Virus record (IMG/VR): IMGVR_UViG_2537562190_000015
Length of the DNA stretch: 40,105 nt
Source: a virus
Lineage: Duplodnaviria > Heunggongvirae > Uroviricota > Caudoviricetes
Reading direction: 5' to 3' (one strand)
Part shown: positions 26,588 through 34,835 of the stretch, in pieces
Layout of the letters: the number at the start of each line of letters is the position of its first letter
Position numbering within the stretch: the stretch's first letter is position 1
Made by a program: the position numbers and the translations under genes
Notes under the pieces: model-generated
Seen by the model: the letters and a program-made list of their open reading frames with translations, nothing else
The model's database searches: none
Told to the model about the DNA's origin: nothing

Positions 26588-27685
26588 ATGAAAAAATTAA
26601 CAGTGGCAATTTCTGCTGTAGCTGCATCAGTACTGATGGCGATGTCTGCTCAGGCAGCTGAAATTTATAATAAAGACAGTAACAAGCTGGATCTGTACGG
26701 GAAAGTTAATGCCAAGCACTACTTTTCCTCTAACGATGCAGATGATGGTGATACTACTTATGTTCGTCTGGGCTTCAAAGGCGAAACCCAAATCAACGAT
26801 CAGCTGACTGGTTTCGGTCAGTGGGAATATGAATTCAAAGGCAACCGCGCTGAATCTCAAGGTTCCTCCAAAGACAAAACCCGTCTTGCATTTGCAGGCC
26901 TGAAATTCGGTGACTACGGCTCAATCGATTACGGCCGTAACTACGGTGTAGCATACGACATCGGTGCGTGGACTGACGTTCTGCCAGAATTCGGTGGCGA
27001 TACCTGGACCCAAACAGATGTGTTCATGACTGGTCGCACCACTGGTGTTGCAACCTATCGTAACAACGACTTCTTTGGTCTGGTTGATGGTCTGAACTTT
27101 GCTGCTCAGTACCAAGGCAAAAACGATCGTAGCGATTTCGATAACTACACCGAAGGTAACGGTGATGGCTTCGGTTTCTCTGCTACCTATGAATACGAAG
27201 GATTCGGTATCGGTGCAACTTATGCGAAATCTGATCGTACCGACACTCAAGTTAATGCAGGGAAAGTTCTTCCTGAAGTATTTGCTTCCGGTAAAAATGC
27301 AGAAGTTTGGGCCGCAGGTCTGAAATATGACGCTAACAACATTTACCTGGCCACTACCTATTCTGAAACCCAGAATATGACTGTATTTGCTGATCACTTC
27401 GTTGCTAATAAAGCTCAAAACTTCGAAGCTGTTGCACAATATCAGTTCGATTTCGGTCTGCGTCCGTCCGTTGCTTACCTGCAATCTAAAGGTAAGGATC
27501 TTGGAGTATGGGGCGATCAGGACTTAGTCAAATATGTTGATGTAGGTGCAACCTATTACTTCAACAAAAATATGTCTACTTTCGTTGATTACAAAATCAA
27601 CCTGCTTGACAAAAATGACTTCACTAAAGCACTCGGTGTAAGCACTGATGACATCGTTGCTGTAGGTCTGGTTTACCAGTTCTAA
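26588..27685 (+). CDS. OmpC/OmpF-family general porin (phage-borne, NmpC/Lc-like), intact
   Basis: 365-aa ORF with signal peptide [40 protein letters not shown]… and C-terminal …VAVGLVYQF; orientation opposite to the late genes, as nmpC is in DLP12. Confidence 0.9.
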
Positions 27686-27874: not shown

Positions 27875-28273
27875 TTAATTAGAGTTATTAACAACGATAT
27901 CCATCTCTAACCGGATATCTAATGCCATTAACATCCCTTCAATTATGCCCTCAGCCTTCTGTAACCTTTTCCCGATATAACCATCAGAGCAGCAATGCTT
28001 ACCTGCCAGTGACATGAATGTCATACCGACTACATAATAATCTACTAATAAATCGTGCAAATCGCTGTTGTTCTTTTTCAGACGGGCCATGCACCCGCAA
28101 ATGATCATCGCGTCATCGTCACAACATTGCGGGCGAGATTTTACTTTTGAAGGAATTAATCCCTTAAAACCGGCGGCAATGGACGACCAGGTCACATCTT
28201 CATGATTATTAGCCGCCCACGCTCCCCAACGTTCAAGAACCATCTGAATATCACACATTAACTTTCTCCACAA
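27875..28273 (-). CDS. Q: late-gene antiterminator Q (short phage 21/82/DLP12 QuuD type)
   Basis: …[74 protein letters not shown]…; about 127 aa from the internal Met; Cys-rich zinc-binding region; sits just upstream of the lysis cassette. Confidence 0.8.
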
Positions 28274-28275
28274 AA

Positions 28276-29271
28276 TCAGGCCAGCACACCAATCGCCAGT
28301 GCGCGATCGATAAAACGAAATATCAGCTCCAGCTGGGAGCCATACTTCTCTTCAAATGCCACGGTATCCGCATGCAGTTCGTCGTGGTGTTTTCTGCACA
28401 AAGGCAGCACAAAAAGGTCATGCGCTTTTGTACCCATTCCACCCTGACCATGGCCTATCAGATGATGCGGATCATCAGCTGGCTTTCCACAACATGCACA
28501 CGGCTGTGTCTTAACCCAGCGCGTGTACTTTTCATTAACCCAGCGGCGACGTTTTGGGCGTAACATAAAAGACTCCGGCGACTCCGGATCCACTTTCAGC
28601 GCCAGCACCTTTTTCGCCTTATCCTGGATGATGCTGGTGGCAGGAACCGAAGGCACAAGGTCACTTTCCCGGGTAACAGACGGCACAACAGGCTTCGGTA
28701 ATCTCAGTGCCTTACGGGCTGCACTTTCCGGTAAGGCATCCGCCAGATCATTACGAATCAGCCACCAGCACAGTTCCGGCATTGTCACAACGTGACTGTC
28801 ATCAAAACCGAGATCCCGACGCACAACAGACAACACCCAGCGGGCACAGTTATCCGTTGCCATTGATTCCAGCCGTTCCGTGAACTGATCGCGCAGCTGG
28901 TTATCGCAGTGCCAGCACAGACGGATTGCACCCGGAGCGTGTCGCATTGTGGTCATGTTCTCGCTGTGCCAGTCGGAATGAGGCCACTGGCAGCCTTTTT
29001 CACGAAGTAACCAGCTTTCAAGACATTCCACGCCACCAGCACGACGGATCACTGCCTCATTGCGGAACACGGCCCGAACGGCAGGATCATCCGCCAGCGG
29101 TTGTGATGCCGCCGGAACGGCACCACTGGCGAAAGATGAATAACGCTCCGGCTCAGGCTCCAGCAGGACACGCCCCTGCATAAACAGGGGCATCAGCTCT
29201 GAACCTGGCCTGAACAATACGATCCCCATACGCGGGGCAATTTCAGGGGTCAGTAGTGCTCTCACGGTCAC
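28276..29271 (-). CDS. DUF968-family phage protein (YdfU-like) with C-terminal Cys/His HNH-like motif
   Basis: 331-aa ORF; C-terminal …[45 protein letters not shown]… resembles an HNH/zinc-finger nuclease motif; nin-region position. Confidence 0.55.
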
Positions 29272-29272
29272 C

Positions 29273-30082
29273 TCAATGAACGGTATCGAGCAGCTTTAAC
29301 AGCTCAGGGAATCGGGATTCGAAGAAATGCGGCTGCGTCTCGCGCGGATTTGCGGGACTGGTGATGTTCTTGCCGAACATGCAACCTTTCGCTGTCAGCG
29401 ACCAGAATTTTTTGATGTTGTTAATCGCTGTACGGCTGTATCGTTCGCGCTGCTCGACGATCCCCAGTTTCACCATCTGGTGATATGCCTGATTAGCCGT
29501 CAGGCGTATACCATACTGTTTCAGCAGTGCACTCAGTGACAGTGTCGGGCGACTTGAGCCATCGTGTGCATCAGCAGGAGCATCAATGGCATAGCGCGGT
29601 GCCAGATTCGGTAAGCCAACAGCCTCCTGGAGTTTCTGACAGGCACCAAGCACTGAAGAGTTAGACAGGTTTAACTCCCGGCGCATAAAGTCCAGCAGGA
29701 TCACGCCAGCCTGCATCTTGTCAGCAGCCTGTCCGGATAATTTTTCCGGTGCGCTGGTTACCATATCGAAAGTACGGATCACCTTCAGATGGAATGACGG
29801 GCTGATCCACATTGCATAGGCATACACCAGTTCCTTGCAGACATACGTTCCCCGTTCATTTCCCCCATGAATCACACTCACCGGGTCAACACCCAAATTC
29901 TGGGTGTTGGTCAATTCATGAACAAGCTCAACAGTTTGTTGGCTGGAAAGAAACTTTCCCGGCTCCTTGGTTCTGGCATTTGCACCAGATGCTACTGCTG
30001 CGCGATGCAGATCGTTCAGGCTGTAACGCCCATAAGCATCACGACGAACTTCAATACCATCAATGACCATCAGATTATTCAT
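29273..30082 (-). CDS. KilA-N domain protein (antirepressor-like)
   Basis: MNNLMVIDGIEVRRDAYGRYSLNDLHRAAVASGANARTKEPGKFLSSQQTVELVHEL… is a typical KilA-N N-terminus; start set at the Met preceded by AGGAGA. Confidence 0.65.
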   Translation of the reverse strand: MNNLMVIDGIEVRRDAYGRYSLNDLHRAAVASGANARTKEPGKFLSSQQTVELVHELTNTQNLGVDPVSVIHGGNERGTYVCKELVYAYAMWISPSFHLKVIRTFDMVTSAPEKLSGQAADKMQAGVILLDFMRRELNLSNSSVLGACQKLQEAVGLPNLAPRYAIDAPADAHDGSSRPTLSLSALLKQYGIRLTANQAYHQMVKLGIVEQRERYSRTAINNIKKFWSLTAKGCMFGKNITSPANPRETQPHFFESRFPELLKLLDTVH

Positions 30083-30101: not shown

Positions 30102-30491
30102 TCAGGCGGCTGCACCCGCCGTTTTCTCGTACTTACTGATAGTGATCTCGACCTTCCCTTTCGGGATAACCGGTCCCCACTCCACCAGCATTCTTTTCAC
30201 CTGACTGTCGTCTTCCCACACACCCGCATGGGTCAGGGCGTCAAACAGCGCCTTGTTATAGTTGTCCAGATCGCGGATCCGGTTATCCGGAGGAAACAAC
30301 ACGATCTCCACTGAAGCAGGTGCCGACGTTGGTTTCGGCAGACGACGTAACTGCTCAACTATTGCTGCGCACGCCGCGCTCTGGAATTTGCGCCCCGCTG
30401 CGCTTATCAGACTCTTACCAGCAAACGCCCCTTTGTTGGGGTGTCGCCAGTACGTGTTCACGCTGGGAGGGAAAGGCAAGATCAGCTTCAT
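30102..30491 (-). CDS. rusA: RusA-family Holliday junction resolvase
   Basis: 129-aa ORF MKLILPFPPSVNTYWRHPNKG… with RDLDNYNKALFDALTHAGVWEDDSQV, matching the RusA catalytic acidic motif region. Confidence 0.8.
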   Translation of the reverse strand: MKLILPFPPSVNTYWRHPNKGAFAGKSLISAAGRKFQSAACAAIVEQLRRLPKPTSAPASVEIVLFPPDNRIRDLDNYNKALFDALTHAGVWEDDSQVKRMLVEWGPVIPKGKVEITISKYEKTAGAAA

Positions 30492-30814
30492 ACTTTCAGG
30501 CCCCTCTCATGTAACCAGTGGGCTGCACGCAGCCTGGCGTTTTCCTCACCGGCAAGCAGTGCGCGGATAATCCCGACCGCCTCGCTGTCGTCGTCCTTCA
30601 CCGCGGTATGAAGAGTTATCCCCCGGGCCACGCCACGCTTTATCGTGATGACGCCTTTTTTCTCCAGTGCGCGAAGATGCTCCACCGCTGCATTCACCGA
30701 ACGGTATCCCAGCATGGTTGCCACCTCCTGATTGGTTGGCGGAAAGCCACGTTCTTGCTGGTAAGAAATCAGCATATCCAGCACCTGCTGCTGGCATTGA
30801 GTTAACGTCGTCAT
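30488..30814 (-). CDS. LexA N-terminal DNA-binding-domain-like protein (no protease domain)
   Basis: 108-aa ORF MTTLTQCQQQVLDMLISYQQERGFPPTNQEVATMLGYRSVNAAVEHLRALEKKGVITIKRGVARGITL closely resembles the LexA winged-helix N-domain (…RQQEVFDLIRDH…[36 protein letters not shown]…), and there is no S24 peptidase part. Confidence 0.65.
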   Translation of the reverse strand: MTTLTQCQQQVLDMLISYQQERGFPPTNQEVATMLGYRSVNAAVEHLRALEKKGVITIKRGVARGITLHTAVKDDDSEAVGIIRALLAGEENARLRAAHWLHERGLKV

Positions 30815-31464
30815 GCCGCCATCTCCCTGACCAGTTTTTCCGCCTGCTGGCGAACCTGCGCCAGAAAGGCCTCACCACATGCCTCAAGTTCATCGCGCCC
30901 GATGTAGCTGATTGCCGGTCCCTTCCAGGTCTTGTCGAAAACAGCAATAGCACCAGCGAAGAAAGCGCCTGTCGGCACCTGCTTCTCATCCTTCGGGATA
31001 AACCAGGCAGGCAGTTCAAAACCAATACGCCCGCGAATAAAAGCAATATGGTCCGCATCTTCCGGCCACCACACTTCGCTGGTGGCAGCTTTGATCAGGA
31101 AAACATAGCGCCCGCCCTTATCACGCATGGCACTGGCATGTTTCATGATGTAACGCATGCCGGTGATGTATTGCCCCTCATGCTGACTGGCGCGGCTGTA
31201 TGGGGGATTACCAAAGGCAGCACCTTTAAGCTCCGCAAGACGTTCTGACCAGTCATGCGCCAGCGCGTTATCTTCCGCCGTGTAATACGCGGCACATTTG
31301 GCGTTATCACCGTCAGTAAACAGATCCAGAACAAACGGGCCAAACAGGGTGTTAATTCCCCAGAAAATGTTGTCCGGCGTGCGCCACTGATCGCCCACTT
31401 CCTTCAGTTCATGGGCTGGTTTGTTCCGCAGTTCCACCAGCGCCTGGCAATATTTATTACTCAT
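30811..31464 (-). CDS. phage Dam-type N6-adenine DNA methyltransferase
   Basis: 217 aa from the ATG overlapping the upstream stop (TAATG); contains the NPPY motif (AFGNPPYSRA) typical of N6-adenine methyltransferases. Confidence 0.7.
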   Translation of the reverse strand: MSNKYCQALVELRNKPAHELKEVGDQWRTPDNIFWGINTLFGPFVLDLFTDGDNAKCAAYYTAEDNALAHDWSERLAELKGAAFGNPPYSRASQHEGQYITGMRYIMKHASAMRDKGGRYVFLIKAATSEVWWPEDADHIAFIRGRIGFELPAWFIPKDEKQVPTGAFFAGAIAVFDKTWKGPAISYIGRDELEACGEAFLAQVRQQAEKLVREMAA

Positions 31465-31958
31465 TAAGCCCCCACGTAATTCCCTGACAGATACCACTCT
31501 TCACCCGATGCAGCGCGCTTGCTGCTTTTCCGTAAGCACCGCTCACGACGCGCCAGAAAATTGTTTCGTTCTGGCTGGGAGTGGCTTTCACGGAATGCCG
31601 CCATCCACACCGTTGCAGCACGACGGTATAAGCCCCTGGACTCCAGTTCTTCAGCCTGGCGGGTCAGGCACAAAATCACCCGTGGATCGTTAGTGCCGAC
31701 ATAGAAATTGCGCACAGGTCTGGTTTCTCGAACTGGTTGTGGTTCCGGTTCCTGCGCTCTCTCAGTCAGGCGCGGGAAATGTCTGCGTGTATCTCCTTCA
31801 CAACGGTGAGCCACACGCCCACTCTGACGTAACTTGCTTGCTGACTGCAGAACGCGCTGCCGTGAGTAACCTGCAAAAGCATCCGCAATGTCTCCGGAAG
31901 TACATCCCGGATGGGCTTCAATGAATTTCTGAACTTCATTCAAAAGACTCATGATCAC
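31464..31958 (-). CDS. PerC-like/YfdN-like protein (164 aa)
   Basis: 164-aa ORF; central …LTRQAEELESRGLYRRAATVWMAAFRE… resembles the PerC-family signature as recalled; start overlaps the replication-gene stop (ATGA). Confidence 0.45.
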   Translation of the reverse strand: MIMSLLNEVQKFIEAHPGCTSGDIADAFAGYSRQRVLQSASKLRQSGRVAHRCEGDTRRHFPRLTERAQEPEPQPVRETRPVRNFYVGTNDPRVILCLTRQAEELESRGLYRRAATVWMAAFRESHSQPERNNFLARRERCLRKSSKRAASGEEWYLSGNYVGA

Positions 31959-32896
31959 CCCCTGAATCCTGCCGGGATCTGGCTGTAGTCCACGTTGTCG
32001 TAACTGGATTTGAAGTACGGGTCTTCGCGTTTTTCGGTGTACGTGCTGACGGACGGTGATAAGCGCAGGGAAAGCTCATCCCATTTTTCCCGCAACTTCG
32101 ACGGGCTGAGCACGTTACGGCACCAGAACGGATCGCGGCTGACGCGGCTGTACATCTCGCAGATTTGTTTGTGAGTACGACCATCCTGCACACACATCAG
32201 GCGAATTTCGTTTGCCCAGGCTGTCCAGTTCGGTTCTTTGGGACGAACCACCTCGCCGTCACATTCGGCGGCTTGCTCGTACAGGGCGATGATTTTTTTC
32301 CAGAGCCACTGTGCGCAGGTCAAATCATCCTGCGTTCCCCACTGGCGCTTTTTAGGGCTGAATACAACCGCATCAGGATGGCGAGTTAAAAAATCCTGTT
32401 CATCCGTCTGCGTGTCCGGTTGCGAAGCGTCCGGACGAGAAGGTTTTTTATCTGACGGATCATGTTTTGATTTTACTGACGGATCCCCGCCAGATTCTGA
32501 CGGGTGAAAACCCGCTTTTTTGCCAGATTTCGACGCATCAAATTTTGACGGGTCAGATTTTGATGCGTCAGATTTTGACGGGTCAGAATCTGACAGTTGA
32601 GAAAATGCCGCTGCCTGAAGCTTCGCAACGTTAAGCTGATAAACATTCGACGCATTGCGGTTACCCTGGCGACGCGCCTTACGCGTTAACCAGCCTTCTG
32701 CTTCCAGCCGTGCGATAGCCGTCCTGACGGTACTCATCCCCGCGCCAATCTGACGGGCAATAGTTTCAATTGATGGCCAGCACACACCTTCGTCATTACT
32801 GAAATCAGCCAGGCGGGCCATAATTGCCACGCTGGATAATTTCATGCCTGATGCAGCGCAACCATCCCATACATAGCCGGTTAATTTAGTGCTCAT
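31955..32896 (-). CDS. replication initiator protein (O-like) containing the origin iterons
   Basis: N-terminal winged-HTH …SSVAIMARLADFSNDEGVCWPSIETIARQIGAGMSTVRTAIARLEAEGWLTRK; the middle encodes repeated SDSDPSKSDASKSDPSKFDASKSG, reflecting DNA iterons, as in lambda O. Confidence 0.75.
   Translation of the reverse strand: MSTKLTGYVWDGCAASGMKLSSVAIMARLADFSNDEGVCWPSIETIARQIGAGMSTVRTAIARLEAEGWLTRKARRQGNRNASNVYQLNVAKLQAAAFSQLSDSDPSKSDASKSDPSKFDASKSGKKAGFHPSESGGDPSVKSKHDPSDKKPSRPDASQPDTQTDEQDFLTRHPDAVVFSPKKRQWGTQDDLTCAQWLWKKIIALYEQAAECDGEVVRPKEPNWTAWANEIRLMCVQDGRTHKQICEMYSRVSRDPFWCRNVLSPSKLREKWDELSLRLSPSVSTYTEKREDPYFKSSYDNVDYSQIPAGFRG
32440..32600. repeat. ori: origin-of-replication iterons (about 6-7 copies of a ~15-17-bp CAGATTTTGACGGGT-like unit)
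   Basis: …CAGATTCTGACGGGT…CAGATTTCGACGCAT CAAATTTTGACGGGT CAGATTTTGATGCGT CAGATTTTGACGGGT CAGAATCTGACAG…, located inside the initiator gene. Confidence 0.75.
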
Positions 32897-33244: not shown

Positions 33245-33792
33245 GCGTTAGTTTCTCCACAGTCACGACACGCCACGGCGCCCGGAGCTGCACACTCGCG
33301 GGCGTCATTACTTTCTGAAATGCAAAAAATTTTGTAGACCAGTGCTGCATGCTCCTGCAGCTTCGAAATTGAGAGGTACAGCTCGTCGTTAATTGCTGTC
33401 TTCTCATGCGGTTCCACTACACCGTCTTCAATTGCTGAACGAATCTGTTTTGAATAACTGCCGATCTGTTCAATGACCTCCAGCAGGCGTTGGTTGATAT
33501 CGGCGTTGTCCACATCCTCGACATCAGGAAGAGACACAAAGACGCCATTTGCAGACTGCGCCACAGCGTCAGCAATGAAGTGAGTTCCACCAGCACGTTG
33601 CAAAATCATTGCCCATCCCAGCGGGAAAATCTGATCGCCATCGGCACGAAGGCGGTTAAATAATGCGTTCTCTGTTACATCCAGCCAGTCAGCAGCTTCA
33701 GCGTACCCCCCCGGCAACGCTGCGATAGTTTTTCTGACAGCTTTCACGTACCACTCAGGCTGTTTTTCTACTTTCCAGTGATGCTTACCCAC
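33241..33792 (-). CDS. CII-like / YdaT-like early regulatory protein (183 aa)
   Basis: Sits immediately downstream of cro and overlaps it; family assignment is from position and vague recollection only. Confidence 0.4.
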
Positions 33793-34045
33793 GGTTCACC
33801 TCCTGTTCCTGTGGTTTAAACCCATTCTGGTTTTGGCTAGATTGAAAACGTGCCGGATAAAGAATCTGCATTTCGCTGACTTCACCCTTAAAAAAATTGG
33901 CTAAACGTTCTGCAAGCTCGATAGATGGAATCTGCTCCAGCCTCTCAATACGACTCAACGTCGCTGGATTGACTTGAACACCCGCAGCAACATGCTGCAA
34001 AGTGAAACCATGCGCCTTACGCACATTTCGTAATGGTGATTGCAT
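33785..34045 (-). CDS. cro: Cro-like HTH repressor
   Basis: 86-aa ORF MQSPLRNVRKAHGFTLQHVAAGVQVNPATLSRIERLEQIPSIELAERLANFF…; XRE-type HTH; divergent from cI. Confidence 0.75.
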   Translation of the reverse strand: MQSPLRNVRKAHGFTLQHVAAGVQVNPATLSRIERLEQIPSIELAERLANFFKGEVSEMQILYPARFQSSQNQNGFKPQEQEVNRG

Positions 34046-34142: not shown

Positions 34143-34835
34143 ATGAACATAGGAAACCGAGTCAGACAACTTCGCCAAGCGAAGAACATGAAAATCGCCG
34201 ATCTCGCTGAAGCGATAGGAGTAGATGCGGCGAACATCTCGCGCTTAGAAACGGGTAAGCAAAAACAATTTACCGAACAAACACTGAGTAATATTGCCAA
34301 GAGCTTAGGTGTTGATATTGCTGATCTCTTTACCTCTGCCCACAAAAGTAATACTGTATATAAAAACAGTAATAATGAGGATGTTGCGCAGGTGAAGGAT
34401 GTGTTCCGTATTGAAATGCTGGATATCAGTGCCAGTGCGGGAAATGGCCTTATCCAGGGCGGTGATGTCATTGATGTGATTCATGCCATCGAATACAGAA
34501 CTGATAATGCTGTATCAATGTTCGGCGGACGACCAGCCAATCACATCAAAGTTATCAACGTTCGTGGGGACAGTATGTGTCCAACCATTGAGCCAGGAGA
34601 TCTCATCTTCGTTGATGTCAGCATCAATCAGTTTGATGGTGATGGTATATATGTCTTTGGTTTTGATGACAAAATATACGTTAAAAGACTTCAAATGATT
34701 CCTGACAAACTGCTGGTGATTTCTGATAACCAGATTTACCGTGAATGGGGAATTACTAGCGAAAACGAACACCGATTCATGGTCTTTGGAAAGGTCTTAA
34801 TCAGTCAGTCGCAAACCCTTAAGAGACATAATTAA
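34143..34835 (+). CDS. cI: CI-type prophage repressor (HTH plus S24 LexA-like autopeptidase)
   Basis: 230-aa ORF; N-terminal XRE HTH (KIADLAEAIGVDAANISRLETGK); Ala-Gly cleavage site (SASAGNG); S24 motifs GDSMCPTI (Ser) and KRL (Lys). Confidence 0.9.
   Translation: MNIGNRVRQLRQAKNMKIADLAEAIGVDAANISRLETGKQKQFTEQTLSNIAKSLGVDIADLFTSAHKSNTVYKNSNNEDVAQVKDVFRIEMLDISASAGNGLIQGGDVIDVIHAIEYRTDNAVSMFGGRPANHIKVINVRGDSMCPTIEPGDLIFVDVSINQFDGDGIYVFGFDDKIYVKRLQMIPDKLLVISDNQIYREWGITSENEHRFMVFGKVLISQSQTLKRHN

Follow-up and report, generated by a model that had tools for sequence, protein, structure and literature searches.

Why would a lambdoid prophage carry a LexA DNA-binding domain that has no protease attached to it, and what might such a protein bind? 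The question is raised by IMG/VR virus record IMGVR_UViG_2537562190_000015, a stretch of 40,105 nucleotides that was analysed as a whole and is here called the window. Escherichia coli O103:H2 strain 12009 carries it as a lambdoid prophage at the argU/DLP12 site (100% match over 6 kb). An open reading frame (ORF) on its minus strand encodes a 108-residue protein, with the same start as that given by RefSeq:

30488..30814, minus strand: LexA-like gene (ECO103_RS02730, WP_000210187.1; RefSeq 'LexA family transcriptional regulator'; PHROG 362)

An original prediction, made by a model from the letters alone, had proposed that this protein is a LexA winged helix that could bind SOS operators and that would escape inactivation by activated RecA (RecA*). 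The analysis described here finds a genuine LexA winged-helix domain joined to a conserved helical hairpin, encoded by a working gene. The protein may serve as a stand-in for LexA that RecA* cannot destroy.

A LexA winged helix with a hairpin tail

Residues 1-65 of the protein match the Pfam family LexA_DNA_bind (PF01726) over its full length (positions 1-65 of 65), scoring 69.2 bits where the cutoff is 23.7 (E 2.6e-19). In a phmmer search of the Protein Data Bank (PDB), residues 2-70 align without gaps to residues 2-70 of E. coli LexA (E 6e-16). An AlphaFold2 model, calculated from an alignment of 18 sequences, has a mean predicted local distance difference test score (pLDDT) of 85. Its top Foldseek matches in the PDB are the LexA-operator complexes 3JSO and 3JSP, with root-mean-square deviations of 0.9-1.0 Å over 67-69 residues and 49-51% identity. 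When the model is superposed on the LexA-DNA complex 3JSO, the deviation is 1.0 Å over 68 residues at 50% identity, which is far beyond chance. The protein has a true LexA winged-helix domain in residues 1-68, and the alignment by eye over the N-terminal ~70 residues, on which the original prediction was based, is borne out by the full-length profile match, the gapless alignment and the superposition. The protein is divided as follows:

30611..30814, minus strand: winged helix-turn-helix, codons 1-68 (helices at residues 6-22 and 28-35, recognition helix at 40-52, wing strands at 56-58 and 66-68; pLDDT ~90)
30659..30697, minus strand: recognition helix VNAAVEHLRALEK, codons 40-52, with Ser39 directly before the helix
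30593..30610, minus strand: flexible or disordered acidic linker, codons 69-74 (pLDDT <50 at residues 72-74; length differs among orthologues)
30491..30592, minus strand: two-helix hairpin tail, codons 75-108 (helices at residues 75-88 and 93-103; pLDDT ~90)

E. coli LexA (1LEA, 1JHH, 3JSO) and the phage protein share a winged helix that is 50% identical, and weak residual similarity runs on through the hinge to the position of the Ala-Gly bond. Beyond this the two proteins differ. LexA continues into an S24 domain, which contains the Ser/Lys protease and mediates dimerisation, whereas in the phage protein residues 75-103 of the hairpin stand in its place. No match to Peptidase_S24 was found in the 108-residue protein, and the chain ends at residue 108, which agrees with the earlier statement that the S24 domain is absent. 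The NCBIfam lexA equivalog TIGR00498 gives 70.3 bits, below its cutoff of 110.95, and aligns only at model positions 1-91 of 203. By this cutoff and by its missing S24 domain, the protein is not LexA proper.

The original prediction also held that the protein lacks the Ala-Gly cleavage site. Taken literally, this is incorrect: HMMER sets '...IIRALLAGE' opposite '...VGRVAAGE' of LexA, and thereby places Ala88-Gly89 on the Ala84-Gly85 scissile bond. In functional terms the statement holds. Orthologues have AN, VG, ER, TR, SG, DD or other pairs at this position, and Ala88-Gly89 is located at the end of the confidently predicted helix of residues 75-88. The variation among orthologues and the predicted helical structure mean that the dipeptide does not serve as a cleavage site, and the possibility that it is cleaved in trans, or acts as a decoy for LexA and RecA*, was rejected on the same grounds. 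At most, Ala88-Gly89 is a vestige of a truncated lexA ancestor. Because the protein has neither an S24 catalytic domain nor a conserved cleavage site, its architecture supports the claim that RecA*-stimulated self-cleavage cannot inactivate it.

The C-terminal 35 residues are a conserved helical hairpin and not a leftover. Tail-bearing relatives down to 40% identity preserve its length and share the pattern ΦxxΦΦRALLx-turn-xARxRAxxWLxxxG, in which A97 and L101 are invariant. A profile built from 15 tails matched no PDB sequence at E <= 10, and the Foldseek matches of the model in the PDB cover the winged helix only, with none on the tail. As judged from its sequence pattern, the hairpin is a putative dimerisation or partner-binding module.

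Both parts of the protein are maintained. A set of 80 IMG/VR loci, supplemented with others, contains 56 distinct nucleotide alleles, each 324 nucleotides long, which encode 13 proteins. The mean ratio of nonsynonymous to synonymous polymorphism (pN/pS) is 0.05 for the whole gene; the DNA-binding domain has a value of 0.035 and the tail one of 0.069. The LexA-like gene is therefore a working gene under strong purifying selection on both modules.

SOS boxes and an operator inside cI

The residues of E. coli LexA that contact DNA are Ser39, Asn41, Ala42, Glu44 and Glu45 (PMC3091678). Four of these five are retained in the phage protein (S39, N41, A42 and E45), and Glu44 of LexA is replaced by Val; the stretch of helix 3 that was compared reads SVNAAVEHLRAL. 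The wing residues R64-G65 are identical as well, and S39, N41, R64 and G65 never vary in the family alignment. The isolated N-terminal domain of LexA keeps SOS-box binding and repression, such that ClpXP must remove it for the SOS response to proceed (PMC10584840). Because four of the five LexA contacts are kept, it is plausible from the sequence that the phage protein binds SOS boxes of the form CTGT-N8-ACAG.

Palindromes of the type CTGT...ACAG with spacers of 0-24 nucleotides are not enriched in the window (17 versus 12.2 expected). A scan of 25.5-36.5 kb for short inverted repeats that might represent an alternative operator revealed nothing recurrent. Only one LexA-type site in the window is outstanding, and it lies within the gene for the immunity repressor:

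34143..34835, plus strand: prophage CI-like repressor gene (Pfam HTH_3/HTH_26, an XRE helix-turn-helix, and Peptidase_S24; RefSeq)
34352..34371, no strand assigned: 20-bp SOS box TACTGTATATAAAAACAGTA, a candidate cis target in the hinge-coding part of cI

The CI-like protein is a RecA*-cleavable immunity repressor. The box inside its gene is identical at 20 of 20 positions to the umuDC operator of E. coli MG1655. Its core, CTGTA..A.A..CAGT, is invariant in cI alleles that are 70-77% identical at the DNA level, namely those of ST64B (sb38), Klebsiella phage 1 LV-2017, Flotzy and phiNP. The surrounding hinge is hypervariable, with indels directly beside the box. Third-codon positions are invariant at 6 of 7 sites within the box, compared with 30 of 224 elsewhere (Fisher p 6e-5). 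Invariant third-codon positions amid a hypervariable hinge point to selection on the DNA itself, and the box most likely functions as a LexA operator within the gene. The LexA-like gene is also present in all 10 distinct deposited phages with a close cI allele, and linkage to a cI gene with a box of this kind recurs in a relative at 49% identity.

SOS boxes also occur in related phage loci, where 51 were found in 1.34 Mb versus 0.3 expected from shuffled sequences, in loci that are related to one another. In related Stx-type (Shiga toxin) phages, an SOS-like box, TACTGTAAAAATAAACAGTG (L003:14086..14105, and ~35 other IMG/VR loci), overlaps the start codon of an ORF for a 350-residue DNA methyltransferase. 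This box is located ~4-5 kb (mostly 3.9-5.0 kb) downstream of the LexA-like gene, past the antiterminator gene Q, and the methyltransferase gene that carries it is absent from the window. In one further locus, an SOS box, TACTGTATTTATGAACAGTG (L046:10765..10784), is found in a 150-bp spacer between rusA and a variant of the KilA-N gene, which suggests that an antirepressor-like gene under LexA control adjoins the LexA-like gene there. The KilA-N gene of the window abuts rusA, with no such spacer or box.

Early-right operon and distribution

The LexA-like gene has a fixed place in the early-right operon, which is encoded on the minus strand and was delineated from RefSeq and Pfam annotations. 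From the cro side, the operon comprises genes for a Cro-like protein, a CII-like protein (ymfL), a DUF4222 protein, an HTH_36 protein resembling replication initiators, a PerC-like protein (yfdN) and a Dam-family methyltransferase, followed by the LexA-like protein, RusA, a KilA-N protein, a DUF968/HNH-like protein and the Q antiterminator. This setting is another difference from E. coli LexA, whose gene is chromosomal and autoregulated. The genes on which the argument draws are as follows:

33785..34045, minus strand: cro-like gene
31955..32896, minus strand: replication-initiator-like HTH_36 gene
30811..31464, minus strand: Dam-family phage N-6-adenine methyltransferase gene, the upstream neighbour (PF05869, E 1.1e-45; RefSeq annotation)
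30102..30491, minus strand: RusA Holliday-junction resolvase gene, the downstream neighbour (PF05866)
29273..30082, minus strand: KilA-N gene, abutting rusA
28276..29265, minus strand: DUF968/HNH-like gene, downstream of the LexA-like gene beyond rusA and the KilA-N gene
27875..28258, minus strand: Q antiterminator gene

Both immediate neighbours had been named correctly in advance, as a Dam-type methyltransferase and RusA. The stop codon of the Dam gene overlaps the start codon of the LexA-like gene by four nucleotides (ATGA) on the same strand, and the stop codon of the LexA-like gene overlaps the start codon of rusA in the same way. A Shine-Dalgarno sequence, AGGGAG, precedes the ATG of the LexA-like gene. 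Given these overlaps at both junctions and the Shine-Dalgarno sequence, the natural reading is that the gene is co-transcribed and translationally coupled with the Dam and RusA genes, and the overlaps thus fit the co-transcription that had been proposed. A consensus scan found no minus-strand promoter near the LexA-like gene, although the same scan also missed the pR promoter implied upstream of cro.

The order (replication genes)-(methyltransferase)-LexA-like-RusA-(antirepressor-like/DUF968)-Q defines the position of the gene. Relatives at 49-52% identity retain the synteny methyltransferase(s)-LexA-like-RusA-(ANT or DUF968)-antiterminator. In a Citrobacter relative (L089, 67% identity), the order LexA-like-RusA-KilA-N is retained and Dam is absent. 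RusA is the most constant neighbour of the LexA-like gene.

Elsewhere in the window, a porin gene (26588..27685, plus strand) is found between Q and the lysis cassette on the strand opposite to both, which is a typical position for a lambdoid moron. The tape-measure gene (~9730..12212, minus strand) is a frameshifted pseudogene in RefSeq and is split in the ORF list (9972..11906 and 11749..12213). Given this split gene, the prophage copy may be defective for virion production.

The gene is widespread in E. coli. At >=90% nucleotide identity, 2233 of 5426 complete E. coli genomes (~41%) carry it, with up to four copies in each. Counted separately across E. coli genomes, the cI allele is found in 1040, and the whole 4.3-kb interval (at >=80% coverage) in 542. 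The gene also occurs in >587 IMG/VR contigs and in ~50 deposited phage records, including SfV (orf42), SfII, SfIV, cdtI, mEp460, Ayreon and Stx2a-, Stx2c- and Stx2k-converting phages. A profile search of genome contigs with a narrower alignment recovered family members in Shigella and Citrobacter only, plus ordinary lexA genes.

The existence of the gene and its family assignment are already on record. Depositors have called the product 'LexA-like protein', 'LexA DNA binding domain protein' or 'repressor, lexA family', and residues 1-108 match positions 1-106 of 106 in PHROG 362, 'transcriptional repressor' (E 2.6e-59). Several phage records use the names 'SOS-response repressor and protease LexA' or 'RecA-mediated autopeptidases' for the 108-residue protein, and some RefSeq phage records call the neighbouring Dam gene 'phosphoadenosine phosphosulfate reductase'. 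These names are probable annotation errors; in the case of 'protease LexA', the reason is that the protein has no protease domain. The PADLOC models of defence systems do not include the protein, and the search gave a marginal match, at the level of the winged helix-turn-helix, to a CARF protein model (E 4.7e-4).

The protein is a member of the phage truncated LexA homologues. Proteins that consist of only the LexA domain are also widespread elsewhere among phages, for example in mycobacteriophage Wildcat, in tectiviruses and in uncultured Caudovirales. Four proteins of the representative library (P0128, P0135, P0156 and P0163; 140-222 residues) contain two tandem LexA DNA-binding domains, and so are single-chain pseudo-dimers without a protease domain. 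Another (P0154, 240 residues) is a LexA DNA-binding domain fused to a DUF968/HNH-like C-terminal domain that closely resembles the C-terminus of the DUF968 protein in the window.

Candidate roles of the protein

The reading that we tentatively prefer, with a probability of roughly 45%, is that the protein is a RecA-insensitive, delayed-early surrogate of LexA that dimerises through its hairpin and re-occupies LexA-type operators of host and phage after LexA has been cleaved. The protein would be made delayed-early after infection or induction, and not in the quiescent lysogen. The hairpin would allow it to dimerise, and the dimer would bind operators that contain CTGT. Because RecA* cannot destroy the protein, it would re-impose repression at SOS operators once host LexA is cleaved. 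Its targets would be host SOS genes and SOS boxes borne by phages, for example the box in its own cI gene that is identical to that of umuDC, and in this way the SOS response would be damped and the lytic programme locked in. The tandem double-domain phage proteins fit the need for two LexA domains per operator. A more detailed version, which we consider doubtful, is that the stand-in closes recA, sulA, umuDC, ruvAB, the LexA-controlled antirepressor genes of rival prophages and colicin lysis genes, and blocks resynthesis of its own CI by occupying the box inside cI, while RusA replaces the SOS-dependent resolvase RuvAB.

Two comparisons help to place this proposal. The fragment of LexA that cleavage releases, LexA 1-84, has the same domain as the N-terminal part of the phage protein and keeps some SOS-box binding and repression (PMC10584840). 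It is unstable, since its C-terminus, newly formed by cleavage, is a ClpX degron. Unlike this fragment, the phage protein has a folded hairpin, its own putative dimerisation element, followed by the C-terminal residues ...RGLKV. The proteins PsiB (of plasmids) and DinI (of phages or hosts) act on RecA filaments. They have no homology to the phage protein, and the outcome would be similar, in that a mobile element damps the SOS response; the phage protein would do so by replacing LexA at its operators.

Several observations weigh against a LexA surrogate. Position 44 is V, A, T, F or L in all family members and is never Glu. The Citrobacter orthologue has NTITG in helix 3, and thus E45G, with an intact SOS box inside cI nearby. 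Because the box is intact beside this E45G orthologue, the cI box is probably maintained for host LexA rather than for the 108-residue protein. The box also occurs in ST64B and in Klebsiella phage 1 LV-2017, and neither is among the tblastn matches to the 108-residue query. Since the LexA-like gene and cI are 3.5 kb apart, their co-occurrence may reflect mere linkage. Of 53 related loci with sufficient flanking sequence, 20 lack a strong SOS box in the scanned 5.5 kb upstream and 7 kb downstream of the LexA-like gene. Only the sequence pattern points to a dimer formed through the hairpin. A literature search found no experimental study of the binding or function of the protein, only the work on gp6 of phage GIL01 and genome annotations, and gp6, the only characterised truncated LexA protein of a phage, has a changed operator and activates transcription.

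This precedent leads to the alternative that survives best, although we regard it as rather unlikely: that the protein is a phage transcription factor like gp6, with a LexA fold and a diverged, private operator, which activates or represses a small number of phage promoters, perhaps just one, and leaves the host SOS regulon largely unaffected. The truncated LexA homologue gp6 binds a palindrome, distinct from that of LexA, that overlaps the -35 element of the late promoter P3, and activates this promoter (PMC6182141). Like the 108-residue protein, gp6 of the Bacillus tectiviruses GIL01 and Bam35 is phage-encoded, consists of a LexA DNA-binding domain without the protease, and is expressed from an early operon. 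The two are homologous by profile comparison (hhalign 96.4%, E 1.2e-9, with 33% identity over 63 columns), and BLASTP of gp6 against the 108-residue protein gave no match. The replacement of Glu44 throughout the family and the loss of Glu45 in some lineages point to drifting specificity, and the many carrier loci without SOS boxes are consistent with a private operator.

However, gp6 also differs from the protein in several respects. It has 66 residues, no C-terminal hairpin, an origin from LexA of the Gram-positive type and a different recognition helix, in which K38 is critical; moreover, it belongs to a tectivirus rather than to a lambdoid siphovirus. The recognition helix of the 108-residue protein is far nearer to that of E. 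coli LexA (SxNAAxEHLxAL) than the helix of gp6 is to those of the 108-residue family. Scans of the early and regulatory region of the window turned up no other conserved palindrome, and late transcription in lambdoid phages is already carried out by Q.

It is improbable that the protein is a DNA-tethering adaptor, that is, not a classical repressor but a protein that brings a partner bound by its hairpin (RusA, the DUF968/HNH-like protein, the methyltransferase or a host factor) to sites on DNA. Such a role would account for a tail that is conserved, is under selection and matches no known dimerisation domain, as well as for the constancy of RusA as a neighbour, and P0154 is a natural fusion of a LexA DNA-binding domain to DUF968. 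However, this fusion is a single cluster whose DNA-binding domain has no hairpin tail, and a winged helix-turn-helix with a short helical module is a common layout of homodimeric repressors.

Slightly less probable still is a controller of the adjacent methyltransferase or RusA module, analogous to the C proteins of restriction-modification systems. The gene is directly preceded by one or two methyltransferase genes, an arrangement that persists in relatives as distant as 49-52% identity, and in the window it is translationally coupled to Dam. However, a PerC-like gene precedes it, and Dam is lacking, in SfIV, in the Citrobacter locus L089 and in many prophages of E. coli, and neither consensus nor inverted-repeat scans made a promoter or operator evident upstream. 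Finally, the idea of a functionless, decaying remnant of a captured lexA gene, which could explain why the homology reaches a little beyond the DNA-binding domain, as far as the hinge and cleavage region of LexA (TIGR00498 positions 1-91), as expected after truncation, is ruled out by the selection data (pN/pS of 0.05, with only 13 proteins from 56 alleles), by the retention of length and tail down to 40% identity, and by the intact ORF in 2233 E. coli genomes.

The operator identical to that of umuDC inside cI is the most intriguing by-product of the analysis. Its conservation at the DNA level within the cI ORF suggests that host LexA directly regulates the prophage immunity region, and we found no description of such regulation.

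In E. coli, prophage induction, the release of Shiga toxin, mutagenesis and a large share of horizontal gene transfer are set off by the SOS response. If the 108-residue protein acts at a private operator, as gp6 does, it would be one more phage regulator. The gene is of moderate interest in view of its prevalence in E. coli and in Stx phages. If the protein is indeed a RecA-insensitive surrogate that re-represses LexA operators, the duration and amplitude of the SOS response, the competition among co-resident prophages and possibly the yield of toxin after treatment with SOS-inducing antibiotics would change. In the more detailed version of this reading, the protein would represent a new type of viral device for anti-SOS activity and lytic commitment, carried by ~40% of E. 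coli genomes and by phages that include those encoding Shiga toxin.

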